Positions 28,466 through 55,684 of a stretch of DNA of 64,000 nt are shown here, piece after piece. Below the pieces are notes generated by a model. It was given only the letters and a program-made list of their open reading frames with translations, ran no database searches and was not told where the DNA came from. A program made the position numbers and the translations under genes. The stretch is from a virus: IMG/VR virus record IMGVR_UViG_3300028416_000501, positions 15,054 to 79,053 of that record; one strand, given 5' to 3'. Every line of letters begins with the position of its first letter. The stretch's first letter is position 1.

Positions 28466-28680
28466 TTTAGTGTAACTTCTTTAACACCTTGTAGTTTTAA
28501 TAAGAAATACTCCTTCTGGGAGTATTTTTTTTGAATCCAAATTGCATGTCTTGGATCAGCACCATATTTAAATATAGTCATTTCGTAGTAATATCCAACA
28601 ATTAGATTACCACTAGTCATACGTTTTGGCCACCAAGCAAACACTCTGTTAACTGTATCGGGTCTTCGTATTATTCCCAT
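28462..28680 (-). CDS. hypothetical protein
   Basis: Coupled to last rSAM; FAWWPKRM motif. Confidence 0.55.
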   Translation of the reverse strand: MGIIRRPDTVNRVFAWWPKRMTSGNLIVGYYYEMTIFKYGADPRHAIWIQKKYSQKEYFLLKLQGVKEVTLN

Positions 28681-29846
28681 TATTTAAAAGTTTCGTCGCC
28701 TGGAAATAGAGGCATTTTTGTTCCTGCTCTACGCTTAGGAATTTTACTATCAGCACTACTTACACATGCACCTGTTGTACATAATGCAGGACCATCAAAC
28801 AACTTAAATCCTGTTTCAATGTTGCCCAAAGGTTGATCCATACAACTGTAAGAACGCTTAACACTACCATCAGGTTCACGTATAATTATGCTACGGTATC
28901 CGCTACTACATTCCCATCCTTTAAACTTATTAAAGTCAAATGCGTTGAATCGTTCTGCTTGGTCCATGTACCACGGCTCGCCATCTTCATCTCTGAATTC
29001 TACTTGCATGTGCCAAGGAACTTTTGCAGTTTGCTTTCTATATTCATCTTCTTGATCAATTTTAAATGTAGGCTTAGGTCTTGTTACTAATTGTTTTTGT
29101 TTAGCCTTAGCTTCTGTATATCCACGTTGCGGCATTCCATTATGCAATTTAGCTCGCATCTCATCTGTATAACCGTCTACTACTCTACTTGCAGTTGGAT
29201 CACTTTGAGGCTTTAGTGTTACATTGATTCCTTGATTGTGAAAGAACAATGCGTTTTCATAATATTCATCAAATAATTCTGGAACCATAACCATATTAAT
29301 AGTTACCTGCACATCATGTTCTTGACATAGTATAAGTTTGTCTGCAAGATCTTGCATCTTCTCAACTGTGTCAACATGCTCAACATGTAAACTACATGTG
29401 ATACTAGCACGGTGAAAATGGCTTGCATAATCTACATAGGTTTTAAACCATTTCATATTACGACTACAGTTACTTGTCATGTGTACACTTGTATAGTTTG
29501 TGTTATGCACATCATCGCTTAGATGTTTCAGCATATCCAAGTACCCAGGATGAAACGTTGGTTCGCCTCCACTTAAACTAAAATGGAAACTGTTAAATCC
29601 ACGTTCACGTGCTTGACGTTTAATCTCATCAATAGTTTTTAAATTTAGCTCTGTAGGTCTATGGTCTTTTCTACTGCTTCTAGCATAAGGCCAACAGTAA
29701 CTACAGTTGTAGTTACAAAAGCGGCCTAGTAGCCAACTCACAGTGAACATGTCTCTGTACAACATATTGCGTTGTCCTACACGAACTAGTTTATCGTACG
29801 GTGTTTTAGTGAAGTCGTACTCGCTCCATTTTAAATCATTTGTCAT
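28680..29846 (-). CDS. radical SAM protein with C-terminal twitch/SPASM
   Basis: CNYNCSYC, SGGEPT, GWECSSG...SC...CTTGAC. Confidence 0.93.
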   Translation of the reverse strand: MTNDLKWSEYDFTKTPYDKLVRVGQRNMLYRDMFTVSWLLGRFCNYNCSYCWPYARSSRKDHRPTELNLKTIDEIKRQARERGFNSFHFSLSGGEPTFHPGYLDMLKHLSDDVHNTNYTSVHMTSNCSRNMKWFKTYVDYASHFHRASITCSLHVEHVDTVEKMQDLADKLILCQEHDVQVTINMVMVPELFDEYYENALFFHNQGINVTLKPQSDPTASRVVDGYTDEMRAKLHNGMPQRGYTEAKAKQKQLVTRPKPTFKIDQEDEYRKQTAKVPWHMQVEFRDEDGEPWYMDQAERFNAFDFNKFKGWECSSGYRSIIIREPDGSVKRSYSCMDQPLGNIETGFKLFDGPALCTTGACVSSADSKIPKRRAGTKMPLFPGDETFK

Positions 29847-30699
29847 TATTGTAATTCTTCGTTATATAGTTTACCCATGTATTTATACCTTGCTTAGTGC
29901 TGTACATTTTCTCGTCAGGCTTAATGTTTTTAAAATCTTCTAAATTAAAATAAAAGAATGTTGTTTTTGTTTCTAACCATTTCTCAATTAAACCTGCTAA
30001 TATGGAGTGTGTTTCATTTGTAAAATGTGCAGGCCTAACATCGTAAGATGGGAACAGATCTTTATCCCATCCTAATATTGTATTTTCAAATTTAACAAGA
30101 TCAAGCAATGAATGTACTTCTGGTCTTAGTATATTTTCATTTGTATTAGGATCATACCAATGAAATCCTTTTATAATCTTAGCGTCTGGTCTTAGTCTTG
30201 TAACCTTATCCAATATTAGTTTGGCAAATGTATTTTCTCTTTCTGTAAATCCATTATGCACATGAAGTTCATGCCAGTTTGCTATTTTTGAATACATATG
30301 ATGTTTGTACATTGAATTGTCATCTTTGAGTTTTGCATATTTATTAGCCTCATTATTTGCCATTTCTATACTAGTCGAATGAGCATTATCATCATTTGGC
30401 CCACGATTATCTTCTTCCCAATAATCATGCATAAAGGTTAATCTATTGTTTGAATTTGTTAATACAAAGATAACTTGCTCATACTGTTGATGATACTTTT
30501 CAAACTGCATAAAACTGTAATATAAATCAGTTCCACCAAGTCCATACGAATCCGCATCTAGTAGATCTATCCATGTTTTAAAAATACTATTATTAAATAA
30601 ATTAATTTGCCTCTGAGTTTCCATGATTGATTGGTGCGGTACTATGACTTTGCTTTCTGCAAAACTATCTCCAAATACACCTATTTTTTTACTGAACAT
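29836..30699 (-). CDS. SGNH/GDSL hydrolase-like protein
   Basis: IGVFGDSFA, SYGLGG, RPAHF. Confidence 0.65.
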   Translation of the reverse strand: MFSKKIGVFGDSFAESKVIVPHQSIMETQRQINLFNNSIFKTWIDLLDADSYGLGGTDLYYSFMQFEKYHQQYEQVIFVLTNSNNRLTFMHDYWEEDNRGPNDDNAHSTSIEMANNEANKYAKLKDDNSMYKHHMYSKIANWHELHVHNGFTERENTFAKLILDKVTRLRPDAKIIKGFHWYDPNTNENILRPEVHSLLDLVKFENTILGWDKDLFPSYDVRPAHFTNETHSILAGLIEKWLETKTTFFYFNLEDFKNIKPDEKMYSTKQGINTWVNYITKNYNNDK

Positions 30700-53725: not shown

Positions 53726-53726
53726 A

Positions 53727-54263
53727 TTAGGTCATTGATAGGAAGGCATCTGCTCCCTTGCCACAGTTTTCTTTCCAGTGTTCAGCTGCATTTTCATCAG
53801 CTGAATCTGTTACGTATTTGTAACACAATAAATTCTTAGCAAAATGTTTACATACTTTAGCAATTGCGTATGCTTCCATGTCTACAATATCGCTTTCTAA
53901 TTCAGGTTTTTCTTTTACAAAGTTATCACCTGTACTTAATGTATGTGGACTAGTTCCGATAACAATAGTGCCTGGTGTACCTAATTCTTCAAATGGAGTA
54001 ACACCTAAAGCTGATACAGGTCTTGCATCCATGTCACGTTGTTTAACTTGTCCTACTTGTACCAGCTTATCTACTAGCTCGTTATTTAACGAGCCTGCTG
54101 TTCCATAGTTAATAACAGTTTCACAATCGTGTTGTATGCAAGCCATTGTTGCCCACATTGTTGCGTTAATCTTTCCTACACCAGTATACCAAACTTGATA
54201 CTCACTTGAATCTAAATCGTGATCTGGTAATTCGTCTTTTAGTGCTACTAATATATACTTCAT
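53727..54263 (-). CDS. mtnN: 5'-methylthioadenosine/SAH (5'-deoxyadenosine) nucleosidase
   Basis: VALKDE, TGVGKINA, INYGTAG, STGDNFV, VDMEAYAIAKVC, KYVTD.AD. Confidence 0.88.
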   Translation of the reverse strand: MKYILVALKDELPDHDLDSSEYQVWYTGVGKINATMWATMACIQHDCETVINYGTAGSLNNELVDKLVQVGQVKQRDMDARPVSALGVTPFEELGTPGTIVIGTSPHTLSTGDNFVKEKPELESDIVDMEAYAIAKVCKHFAKNLLCYKYVTDSADENAAEHWKENCGKGADAFLSMT

Positions 54264-55684
54264 TTGTCATCCTCTGGTTCATCTAGTAAATACGCCATTT
54301 CTGGAAATGTTGCACGGAAGTCCGTGCCACGTAATTCATCTAGTTTAGTAATGTATTCTCTAAATTCGGGAAGTCGTCTACTCCAATCTTCACTACGAGC
54401 AAAACTAAGCATACCACGTAAACGTTTAATACCAAATGCTGCATCTTCCCACTTAGCGTAATCTACTTTTCCTTTGTGCCAACTAGGAACACCTAGTTCC
54501 CAATTTTCTTTCCACCATTCGATAAATTCTTCGTACTTCTTTTCAGTCTTGTCTAGGAATTCATCTGGTAGCACTTTAACATTTAAGTGTCCTGGCCAAT
54601 ATACAAAGTGATAGTTAATACCACCTGCGCCAAATGGCCACATATTTGTTTTATGGAATCCATGTTGCAATTTCCATTTAAGGAAGTCTGGAATATAATG
54701 AATGTTAAGAGCGTTAACGGCACATGCAATTGTAACTTCTACATTGTTTGATGTACGCTTGTCTAATAGTTCAAACTGTCTTAGGTTATGTTCCCATTCA
54801 CTTGGATACCTAATGTAATCGTTCATTGCACCAATGCTATCTACACTGTAATGAAAACGTACTTTTTGGAAATGTTTCCACTGCTCTAATAGTCTATCTG
54901 GAATCTCAATACCATTTGAATTATAACGCACTTCAATTTGATGTGCATATCCCATCTCAATAACTTTGTCTAAGATTTCATAATGTTCTTCAATAACAGT
55001 TGATTCACCGCCTGCAAAATATAACTGACGAATCCAAGGTATTTGTTTATAAAATTGATCCCAGAATGTAGGATTATTTTTATGCCAGTTATAACTTGCA
55101 CCAAATTCTTTTCCTTTATTATTCCAGATCATAGTTTCTTTTAATGATTCGTTTGTAATCTGTGGATATAGTTTATTCCAATCCTTTACCCATCCTGATG
55201 AATCATGTGGACTGCACATAACACAACCTAATTGGCATTTTGTTCCCATACGAATGTCAATGTACTGCATCTTACTATCAGTACTGCCATCTTCATATGT
55301 TTCAGCTACTAGTTTGTCTATGTCAATGCCATCTCTAATCCAATAATCTGTTTCCCATTGACGTTTTGATCTGTGTCCCGCTGCTTCTTCTTTATAGCAT
55401 TTTAAACAACTAGCAGGCTTTTCACCATCTAGCATCATTCTGCGTACACTTCGCATATAACTATTATTCCATGAACTGTCCAAGTCGCTGTTATTGAGAT
55501 TAGCTGGTTGCCCATCTTCTGTTTTAACAATGCCTACTCGTCCACCGTGTTTTTTATCGTTTGTTGCTCCTACACTAGAAGCATTTGCAGTACAACATAC
55601 TCGCATACTTCCGTCTGGTCTTGTACTTAAATGTATCCACGGAAGTATACAAAAAGTGTCACTTGGTAATTTATTTTCTGCCAT
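54260..55684 (-). CDS. N-terminal twitch radical SAM protein
   Basis: FCILPW..RVCC..CLKC; CQLGCVMC; AGGES. Confidence 0.93.
   Translation of the reverse strand: MAENKLPSDTFCILPWIHLSTRPDGSMRVCCTANASSVGATNDKKHGGRVGIVKTEDGQPANLNNSDLDSSWNNSYMRSVRRMMLDGEKPASCLKCYKEEAAGHRSKRQWETDYWIRDGIDIDKLVAETYEDGSTDSKMQYIDIRMGTKCQLGCVMCSPHDSSGWVKDWNKLYPQITNESLKETMIWNNKGKEFGASYNWHKNNPTFWDQFYKQIPWIRQLYFAGGESTVIEEHYEILDKVIEMGYAHQIEVRYNSNGIEIPDRLLEQWKHFQKVRFHYSVDSIGAMNDYIRYPSEWEHNLRQFELLDKRTSNNVEVTIACAVNALNIHYIPDFLKWKLQHGFHKTNMWPFGAGGINYHFVYWPGHLNVKVLPDEFLDKTEKKYEEFIEWWKENWELGVPSWHKGKVDYAKWEDAAFGIKRLRGMLSFARSEDWSRRLPEFREYITKLDELRGTDFRATFPEMAYLLDEPEDDK

Follow-up and report, generated by a model that had tools for sequence, protein, structure and literature searches.

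The question raised by this locus is what a phage does with 15 radical S-adenosylmethionine (SAM) genes set among other tailoring enzymes in a single block. The locus lies on a 79-kb viral record, IMG/VR IMGVR_UViG_3300028416_000501, of which positions 15,054–79,053 were analysed as one window of 64,000 nt; coordinates given without a locus name refer to this window. From 28462 to 55684 the window holds a near-unbroken run of minus-strand genes whose neighbours overlap by 1–53 nt (list of open reading frames, ORFs), with a single plus-strand gene at 51528–52436. This gene and a 326-nt gap at 43709–44033 are the two breaks in the overlap chain. The near-complete co-orientation and coupling described in an initial annotation of this DNA thus holds, and we infer that the block may form one operon-like unit.

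We found that the block encodes a real, conserved and probably expressed multi-enzyme pathway. Our preferred reading, to which we give about an even chance, is that it is a biosynthetic or tailoring pathway shared by an uncultured marine Rak2/121Q-like jumbo phage and the Bdellovibrionota, in which a sugar or glycoconjugate is edited by radical chemistry.

Radical SAM enzymes of the block

The CX3CX2C motif was present in exactly 15 ORFs between 28680 and 55684, the number given in the initial annotation, and all 15 passed the gathering cut-off of PF04055 (29.5 bits) with scores of 30.6–64.3 bits. A hidden Markov model search with the NCBIfam model NF033640 (N_Twi_rSAM, cut-off 170 bits) placed 11 of them in a family without assigned function that carries an N-terminal twitch domain, at 199.5–412.7 bits, as the annotation had proposed. 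The first gene of the block, at 54260–55684, encodes the highest-scoring of these proteins (474 aa, 412.7 bits) and is referred to below as the anchor. The other ten N_Twi genes lie at 52472–53725 (293.5 bits), 48044–49294 (253 bits), 46017–47153 (224.3 bits), 44789–46027 (314.3 bits), 39273–40328 (199.5 bits), 38063–39286 (383.1 bits), 36916–38094 (231.4 bits), 35191–36402 (316.3 bits), 32309–33544 (272.1 bits) and 30699–32000 (297.6 bits). Two of the remaining radical SAM enzymes have a C-terminal twitch/SPASM region (28680–29846, the last enzyme gene of the block, PF04055 53.2 bits; and 49294–50406, PF04055 42.7 bits, with a weak C-terminal SPASM match) and two consist of the core only (34475–35191 and 33859–34482). 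Together with two free twitch proteins (31990–32322 and 33510–33911), the Pfam results leave the earlier inventory unchanged.

The N_Twi proteins share an N-terminal C...CC...CxxC pattern followed by CX3CX2C. In the alignment C12, C93 and C96 are invariant, and 10 of the 11 window paralogs also have C30 and C31; SPASM (PF13186) was matched over residues ∼12–97 in eight of the proteins, five of them above the Pfam cut-off. All 11 therefore fit NF033640 by score and cysteine pattern, with a departure in the 48044 orthogroup, where the window protein has D-I in place of the CC pair. The pair is also lost in both Bdellovibrionota orthologs (L090 4267–5514 and L094 3012–4211), and the three remaining cysteines suggest an open-site or altered auxiliary cluster.

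The N-terminal twitch aligns to the twitch of BtrN (E 1e-5) and the core to BlsE (E 1e-8). In BtrN and BlsE the twitch is C-terminal, whereas in the window N_Twi proteins it is N-terminal. We found no solved structure among NF033640 members, and literature searches on NF033640, on twitch-domain radical SAM enzymes and on Bdellovibrio plus radical SAM returned no functional study of the family. Because no member has been characterized, membership of the family gives no function. The closest solved radical SAM cores include maturases of peptides that are made by ribosomes and then modified post-translationally (RiPPs; TigE/8vpo, SkfB and CteB), together with BlsE, MoaA and viperin.

Conservation and selection in phages

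CheckV gave the record a completeness of 23%, implying a phage genome of ∼340 kb. The DNA polymerase of the window is 44–48% identical to homologs in Atu_ph07, Phosso, the 121Q/PBECO4 group and Vibrio phage 2.275.O, and these identities place the record among the Rak2/121Q-like jumbo phages. On the grounds of this polymerase and the IMG/VR status of the record, we take the contig to be phage, in agreement with the earlier reading, and a cellular origin was rejected.

Orthologs of the anchor were found in 521 IMG/VR stretches at 63–92% identity. In another phage record of 184 kb (G003), almost all of the array is found in collinear order, at 54–94% amino-acid identity. Comparison of 21 gene pairs between the window and G003 gave synonymous divergence (dS) of 0.6–1.8 and ratios of nonsynonymous to synonymous divergence (dN/dS) of 0.03–0.30, with values of 0.09 for the anchor and 0.085 for 52472–53725. 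These ratios indicate purifying selection on every one of the 21 compared genes, and pseudogenization was rejected on the same values. A megablast search with 21 kb of array sequence gave no match among 50,697 phage records, and tblastn of the anchor against phages gave only Ralstonia phage RsoM2USA (23% identity) and one virus from a marine single-amplified genome.

Nearly exact copies of the DNA turn up in at least 14 seawater metagenome runs. In four metatranscriptomes, from as many studies, the larger part of the array is covered by contigs at least 99% identical to it; carry-over of DNA into these libraries is possible, and per-gene depth in the contigs was not taken as a measure of expression. 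The array is thus probably expressed, which together with the selection data weighs against the two doubts that had been attached to the initial annotation. Metatranscriptome contigs also join across 36916–38091, 46152–49473 and 41823–46771, and in one contig the N_Twi gene at 36916–38094 is replaced by 26 nt. Such junctions indicate that entire gene cassettes are missing or exchanged in some members of the population. More distant phage relatives keep the anchor with other sets of radical SAM genes, with 2–18 N_Twi genes per record. Given these variable sets and cassette replacements, the block is best described as a modular, variable island on a conserved core.

A cellular counterpart in the Bdellovibrionota

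A pattern search of 185,579 species genomes gave 369 stretches with N_Twi homologs, overwhelmingly from metagenome-assembled genomes (MAGs) of Bdellovibrionota. Every cellular match was a MAG, and contigs of 0.9–3 Mb were among them. The cellular arrays contain up to 10 N_Twi genes per 21 kb. The anchor is 59% identical to a Bdellovibrionales ortholog (L096) and the N_Twi protein of 38063–39286, which has 1949 metagenomic homologs, is 45% identical to a Bdellovibrionia ortholog. The radical SAM enzyme of the 28680 type is found at 62–75% identity in cellular or MAG loci (62% in Bdellovibrionota), its family being present in 27 cellular N_Twi loci; the family of the 49294 type is present in 23.

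The accessory enzymes of the block are shared as well. Bdellovibrionota orthologs of the amidinotransferase are 44–45% identical, those of the pyridoxal phosphate (PLP) enzyme 38–46% and those of the short-chain dehydrogenase/reductase (SDR)-like protein 36–39%. Homologs of the Asp/Asn hydroxylase are 32–39% identical, some of them fused to the family of two-domain proteins encoded at 41052 and 42422; members of that family also occur in Bdellovibrionota N_Twi loci. Homologs of the 51528 dioxygenase-like protein are about 29% identical.

The 11 N_Twi paralogs of the window share only 19–32% pairwise identity. In a maximum-likelihood tree 10 of them pair one-to-one with Bdellovibrionota genes and not with each other, the sole paralog without a clear Bdellovibrionota ortholog being 36916–38094. 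These one-to-one orthogroups imply that the paralog set is ancient and has moved between cells and phages as a unit. The suggestion that the paralogs are diverged and distinct is therefore borne out, recent gene duplication or dosage is rejected by the tree, and each paralog presumably has its own role. Four tandem, close N_Twi genes on a Bdellovibrionales chromosome (L114 3341–8671) are a lineage-specific duplication, unlike the ancient paralogs of the phage.

These data bear on whether the genes belong to a pathway at all. The island could instead be a loose collection of auxiliary metabolic genes, unrelated or redundant boosters of host metabolism with no common product, an idea raised for the Campylobacter phages CP220/CPt10. 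Gene content near the anchor does differ between related phages, cassettes are inserted and deleted in the population variants, and the CP220/CPt10 module was called interchangeable and probably non-essential (Timms et al. 2010, PMC2853527). However, the orthogroups and accessory genes are conserved across phages and Bdellovibrionota, the genes are tightly coupled by overlap and purifying selection on them is uniform. We consider a collection without common product very improbable.

The same comparison clarifies one radical SAM enzyme that is split in the window. Its core (34475–35191, PF04055 64.3 bits, dN/dS 0.04) and its C-terminal half, a free twitch protein matching the C-terminal part of NF038073 (31990–32322, dN/dS 0.03), lie ∼2.1 kb apart with three genes between them, and both halves have dN/dS ≤0.04. 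One of the intervening genes is the N_Twi gene at 32309–33544. The other two make up another split pair, which G003 lacks, namely a core-only enzyme of the 49294 type (33859–34482, PF04055 35.4 bits; no ortholog in L082) and a free cysteine-rich twitch-like protein with six cysteines (33510–33911, weak SPASM match, E 0.0047). In Bdellovibrionia L112 the two halves of the first enzyme are adjacent overlapping genes (7553–8305 and 8302–8658), the twitch half of the window being 57% identical to 8302–8658.

Three MAG contigs with N_Twi arrays are assigned to other bacteria: L087 (Crocinitomicaceae), L088 (Gammaproteobacteria MED685) and L126 (Rickettsiales MED657). L087 and L088 carry a 28680-type radical SAM enzyme that is 74–75% identical to that of the window. 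Probably all three derive from phages of this group and ended up in bacterial MAGs through binning.

Accessory enzymes and the nature of the substrate

Beside the cellular N_Twi arrays we found glycosyltransferase family 2 (GT2) genes in 11 loci, B12-binding radical SAM genes in eight and NodU/TobZ-type carbamoyltransferase genes in seven. The flank of the L114 array encodes AsnB, a GT2 enzyme, a UDP-glucose dehydrogenase and a PMT_2/ArnT-like transferase.

The enzyme at 50406–51491 belongs to the amidinotransferase family of AGAT, StrB1, HsvA and SxtG. Its profile matched PDB entries 1bwd (E 1.5e-38), 5wpi (E 1.6e-38) and 6u1r (E 1.4e-37), with E values from 1e-38 to 1e-31 across StrB1, HsvA, SxtG and AGAT, and covers SxtG over its full length. 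H339-C340 near the C-terminus, H219 and several aspartates are invariant in the alignment and are candidates for the catalytic Cys-His-Asp triad. The gene has a dN/dS of 0.05, and we regard its assignment from profile comparison as solid.

An amidinotransferase of this kind might instead serve a soluble guanidino metabolite, aminocyclitol-like, aminoglycoside-like or derived from an amino acid, perhaps a toxin, signal or cofactor for predator and phage. The closest relatives StrB1, HsvA and SxtG are natural-product or polyamine enzymes, carbamoyltransferases and B12-dependent radical SAM enzymes are typical of natural-product tailoring, arginine-modifying PLP enzymes (Plu4/RohP) are among the structural matches described below, and the N_Twi family is enriched in predatory bacteria. 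On the other side, we saw no gene for inositol-phosphate synthase, 2-deoxy-scyllo-inosose (2-DOI) synthase, non-ribosomal peptide synthetase, polyketide synthase, resistance or export, the use of an antibiotic-like product to a lytic phage is unclear, and the glycosyltransferase A (GT-A)-fold proteins of the block suggest attachment to an acceptor. A soluble product of this type is in our view unlikely.

The PLP enzyme (47146–48051, 301 aa) is of fold type I and resembles class-I aminotransferases. Its AlphaFold2 (AF2) model (pLDDT 93.2) matched KAT-I, HisC, 1-aminocyclopropane-1-carboxylate (ACC) synthase, LL-diaminopimelate (LL-DAP) aminotransferase, C-S lyases and Plu4/RohP with a Foldseek probability of 1.0, and D160 and S185-x-x-K188 are invariant in the alignment. 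No DegT/StsC-type sugar aminotransferase was among the top 50 Foldseek matches, an absence from the hit list that does not exclude that family. The SDR-like protein (36356–36919) is short, with 187 aa; its profile matched SDRs in the PDB (best E 4.7e-9), and an N-terminal TGN..G motif and Y104-x3-K108 are conserved. The logic of streptidine biosynthesis proposed in the initial annotation is thus matched in part. The amidinotransferase is homologous to StrB1 (E 1.5e-38) and an SDR-like protein is present, but the PLP enzyme is class-I-like where streptidine biosynthesis uses an StsC/DegT aminotransferase, and neither inositol-handling nor nucleoside diphosphate (NDP)-sugar genes were recognized in the block with Pfam and NCBIfam.

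Two adjacent paralogs, at 41052–42422 (456 aa) and 42422–43708 (428 aa), are predicted to have a GT-A fold followed by a class-I methyltransferase-like fold. Their family is rich in viral members and comprises 927 clusters at 50% identity. In the AF2 model of the 42422 protein (pLDDT 89.9), residues 13–200 gave VIA Z scores of 9–10 against GT-A enzymes (6p61, LARGE1, GlyE, SpsA and Mimivirus R699), and residues 204–428 gave 11.8 against 6ulo and about 9 against EgtD and PNMT. An Atlas structure search pairs the 41052 protein with the 42422 cluster. The family motif HDDYTP is kept in 41052 and degenerate (DYD) in 42422; no Pfam glycosyltransferase match was obtained for these proteins, and the profiles of this family, the PLP-like family and the 51528 family gave no sequence match in the PDB. 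Some relatives carry a fused hydroxylase domain of PF05118, the family to which the Asp/Asn β-hydroxylase-like Fe/2-oxoglutarate (2OG) dioxygenase at 40306–41061 belongs (47.5 bits against a cut-off of 22.6, E 2.3e-12).

The second dioxygenase-like protein is encoded by the plus-strand gene (51528–52436), whose true start is likely the ATG at about 51606. H167, D169 and H268 of its HxD...H motif are invariant in the family alignment. PF11004 (Kdo_hydroxy) was matched by two of five family members (best E 3.8e-6), both of them Bdellovibrionota homologs, and the window protein itself had no Pfam match; a KdoO relation of the window protein is therefore supported through its homologs. A similar qualification applies to two further labels. 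The product of 53727–54263, taken earlier for a methylthioadenosine (MTA) nucleosidase and found in ∼30 related phage loci, resembles MTA/S-adenosylhomocysteine (SAH) or 5′-deoxyadenosine nucleosidases by its match to PNP_UDP_1 (PF01048, 53.9 bits against a cut-off of 25.1, E 2e-14), but all NCBIfam equivalog models scored below their cut-offs (best NF004168, 91 against 129 bits). The 287-aa protein at 29836–30699, tentatively labelled SGNH, shows of the SGNH blocks I, II, III and V a block-I-like GDS motif only, at its N-terminus (GVFGDSFAE), and has no Pfam, NCBIfam or PDB match; it has a paralog at 35% identity in G003. The SDR, PLP, amidinotransferase and Asp/Asn hydroxylase labels were all upheld by profiles, AF2/Foldseek and PF05118. 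Single-sequence PDB searches of the 40306, 29836 and 44034 proteins gave nothing useful.

Several of these proteins would also fit modification of a protein or peptide, in which the radical SAM enzymes epimerize, cross-link or methylate residues of a phage or host protein, or of an unrecognized ribosomal peptide, and the hydroxylase and GT-A proteins act in the manner of LH3 or R699. The PF05118 family acts on proteins, the GT-A plus Rossmann architecture with a 2OG hydroxylase fused in relatives recalls LH3/R699, the PLP enzyme has the fold of an amino-acid aminotransferase, the nearest solved radical SAM cores include the RiPP maturases 8vpo, SkfB and CteB, and genes for an M17 aminopeptidase and ClpP lie nearby. 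In a Foldseek search with the 42422 protein, Mimivirus R699 was the top match (E 6e-4), followed by LH3. The TM-scores to both were, however, low (0.23–0.27). In addition, Pfam and NCBIfam scans of the block revealed no RiPP recognition element (RRE)/PqqD domain, leader protease or exporter, its only small ORFs are not conserved (in a small-ORF search that was not exhaustive), and the cellular arrays occur with GT2 and sugar-type carbamoyltransferase genes. We therefore hold a peptide or protein substrate to be improbable.

The GT-A fold, the link to KdoO, the GT2, carbamoyltransferase and B12-binding radical SAM neighbours, the flank of L114 and a related module in phage CP220 (see below) together point to a carbohydrate or glycoconjugate scaffold. 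The tailoring of a glycan or small molecule, as envisaged in the initial annotation, fits these features, and the interpretation given there is partly supported.

A proposed pathway

In the reading that we prefer, radical editing of a sugar or glycoconjugate, about a dozen distinct radical SAM enzymes, 11 of them with an N-terminal twitch and four of C-twitch or split types, would work on a single scaffold or a set of kindred intermediates. Each would take hydrogen from a different unactivated C-H bond by means of the 5′-deoxyadenosyl radical, with the auxiliary cluster of the twitch domain carrying the second electron, and the chemistry expected of twitch-type enzymes would be oxidation, epimerization, dehydration or deoxygenation, and formation of C-C bonds or C-methyl groups. 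A sugar or glycoconjugate would be the most likely scaffold, perhaps one akin to the ulosonic acids or amino sugars. Its attachment and methylation may fall to the two GT-A/methyltransferase-fold proteins, and its hydroxylation to the Asp/Asn-hydroxylase-like and KdoO-related Fe/2OG dioxygenases; the SDR-like and PLP enzymes may oxidize and aminate it. The amidinotransferase would convert an amine to a guanidine with arginine as donor. The nucleosidase would clear inhibitory 5′-deoxyadenosine, and a phosphoribosyltransferase, a phosphoribosyl pyrophosphate (PRPP) synthetase and an A-type Fe-S carrier encoded nearby would recycle adenine and supply clusters. The product might be placed on the virion or on the envelope of the infected cell, or be released as a free metabolite.

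A number of points weigh against this reading. Pfam and NCBIfam revealed no genes for NDP-sugar synthesis, inositol, nucleotidyltransferase, flippase or polymerase functions in the block, and neither a canonical GT2 nor NDP-sugar genes were found in five related phage records. The GT-A catalytic motif is degenerate in the 42422 protein, and the PLP enzyme is nearer to amino-acid class-I aminotransferases and lyases than to the DegT/StsC sugar type. The classical substrates of PF05118 enzymes are proteins or the acyl chains of lipid A. NF033640 has no member of known substrate, the closest solved radical SAM cores include RiPP maturases as well as sugar enzymes, and the RNA support consists of assembled contigs that could stem from carried-over DNA.

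A more specific version can be put forward speculatively, with a low probability of being correct. At least 10 anciently diverged, position-specific N_Twi radical editors would rebuild one glycan or glycoconjugate, and the toolkit would be exchanged between predatory Bdellovibrionota and jumbo phages. The product would be a heavily C-H-functionalized, hitherto undescribed decoration of the surface or virion that is tied to attacking bacteria, made by chemistry without a characterized parallel. We know of no characterized pathway in which ten or more distinct radical SAM enzymes act on one product.

Gene order and genomic context

The genes of the block not yet described are small or without assignment. 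The 252-aa protein at 44034–44792 has no Pfam, NCBIfam or PDB match; it is absent from the collinear array of G003 and has no ortholog in L081. Two small ORFs (59 and 47 aa, 43701–44020, read from the sequence) occupy the sole sizeable intergenic gap. Neither gave a tblastn match in any fetched locus, the collinear array included, and in view of this lack of homologs they are not conserved precursor candidates. For the 72-aa ORF that closes the block (28462–28680), G003 gave no more than a weak match of 45%.

Just upstream of the amidinotransferase gene, at 51655–51627 on the minus strand, the sequence agrees with TTGACA-17-TATAAT at 12 of 12 positions and has an extended TG. In the RNA-library contigs, word depth peaks over 50444–51771 in four of four runs. 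Since promoter-like sites in the window are not enriched over shuffled sequences (82 versus 77), promoter calls are hints only, and this applies to an internal promoter upstream of the amidinotransferase gene.

N_Twi genes are not confined to the block, as 14 proteins of the whole 79-kb record exceed the NF033640 cut-off, 11 of them in the block. One of the others, at 3992–5290 on the plus strand (239.9 bits in the whole-record search, phrog_14086), has a stop that overlaps by 4 nt the start of the family-B DNA polymerase gene (5287–7980, plus strand), and is probably co-translated with the replication module. The plus-strand ORF at 2935–4056 (373 aa) carries an SSPPY motif such as N6-adenine/N4-cytosine DNA methyltransferases typically have; its PHROG DNA-methyltransferase match is weak and it has no Pfam match.

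This arrangement invites the idea that the enzymes hypermodify nucleic acid, equipping the phage DNA with modified bases or sugar appendages as protection against restriction. The coupling of an N_Twi gene to the polymerase gene and the methyltransferase-like ORF beside it would be in keeping with this, and known phage thymidine hypermodification pathways reportedly use radical SAM and PLP enzymes (Lee et al. 2018, PNAS). Nevertheless, the same ordered gene set occurs in Bdellovibrionota chromosomes beside housekeeping or glycan genes, which argues against a role specific to phage DNA. The block yielded no recognizable hydroxymethylase, DpdA or kinase, and 15 radical SAM enzymes are, to our knowledge, far above any known base-modification route. 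A role in DNA hypermodification is accordingly something we would not expect.

Further genes on the plus strand, from 13369 to 21939, encode an M17 leucyl aminopeptidase, an adenine phosphoribosyltransferase (APRT)-like enzyme, an A-type Fe-S carrier, MazG, a Cpn10-like protein, ClpP and PRPP synthetase. Together these genes have the look of a supporting set that would supply Fe-S clusters and salvage adenine. Just beyond the anchor, on the upstream side of the array where window coordinates are higher, lies a minus-strand pair (57425–60162) encoding a DUF2201 metallopeptidase/VWA protein and a MoxR-like ATPase (phrog_1297). No tRNA genes were found within the window.

Comparison with known systems

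Phages rich in radical SAM genes have been reported before, in descriptive accounts that do not define the enzyme family, the pathway or a cellular counterpart. Campylobacter phages CP220/CPt10 have 11–12 radical SAM genes, including a module of five with a 'glycine amidinotransferase' (Timms et al. 2010, PMC2853527). The CP220 module resembles the window in combining radical SAM enzymes with an amidinotransferase (23% identical to that of the window) and two GT-A-fold proteins, so that the window has all three components of a CP220/CPt10-type module. In BLAST comparisons, however, none of the CP220 radical SAM enzymes is an N_Twi protein; they belong to short C-terminal-twitch types with 49294/33859 and 28680/34475 as their relatives in the window, and the module is much smaller than the window array, includes a PAP2 phosphatase and has no described link to Bdellovibrionota.

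In a marine T4-like genome, 12 radical SAM genes are accompanied by ClpP and genes for Fe-S assembly (Nishimura et al. 2017, PMC5332604); in the window, too, ClpP and an A-type Fe-S carrier are encoded near the radical SAM genes. In pelagimyophages, radical SAM cassettes lie in the host recognition cluster and vary between close relatives (Zaragoza-Solas et al. 2020, PMC7029224). The modular variable-island pattern of the block matches that of these phages and of the phages of Timms et al. Unlike the pelagimyophage cassettes, the window array is not beside tail-fibre genes, and its phage is a ∼340-kb Rak2/121Q-like one.

LH3 and Mimivirus R699 (PMC9546862, PMC12279948) have a GT-A domain followed by a Rossmann domain, and relatives of the window proteins are likewise joined to an Fe/2OG hydroxylase. 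The C-terminal domain of 42422 is nevertheless closer to SAM methyltransferases (6ulo, EgtD and PNMT) than to the accessory domain of LH3, and the window hydroxylase belongs to PF05118 where that of LH3 belongs to the lysyl-hydroxylase family. No known pathway accounts for the gene set, which was the remaining doubt attached to the initial annotation.

Implications

The presence of many radical SAM genes in phages has been noted since 2010. With the block described here this observation becomes a defined and testable pathway that is intact, under selection, present in RNA libraries and abundant at sea. The array is shared gene for gene with Bdellovibrionota, and should a cultured strain of that group prove to carry it, a culturable model might come within reach. 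Solving the pathway would give a chemistry to a large enzyme family and could reveal a new class of glycan or natural-product modification. It could also explain why giant marine phages carry their own support for Fe-S supply and adenine salvage.

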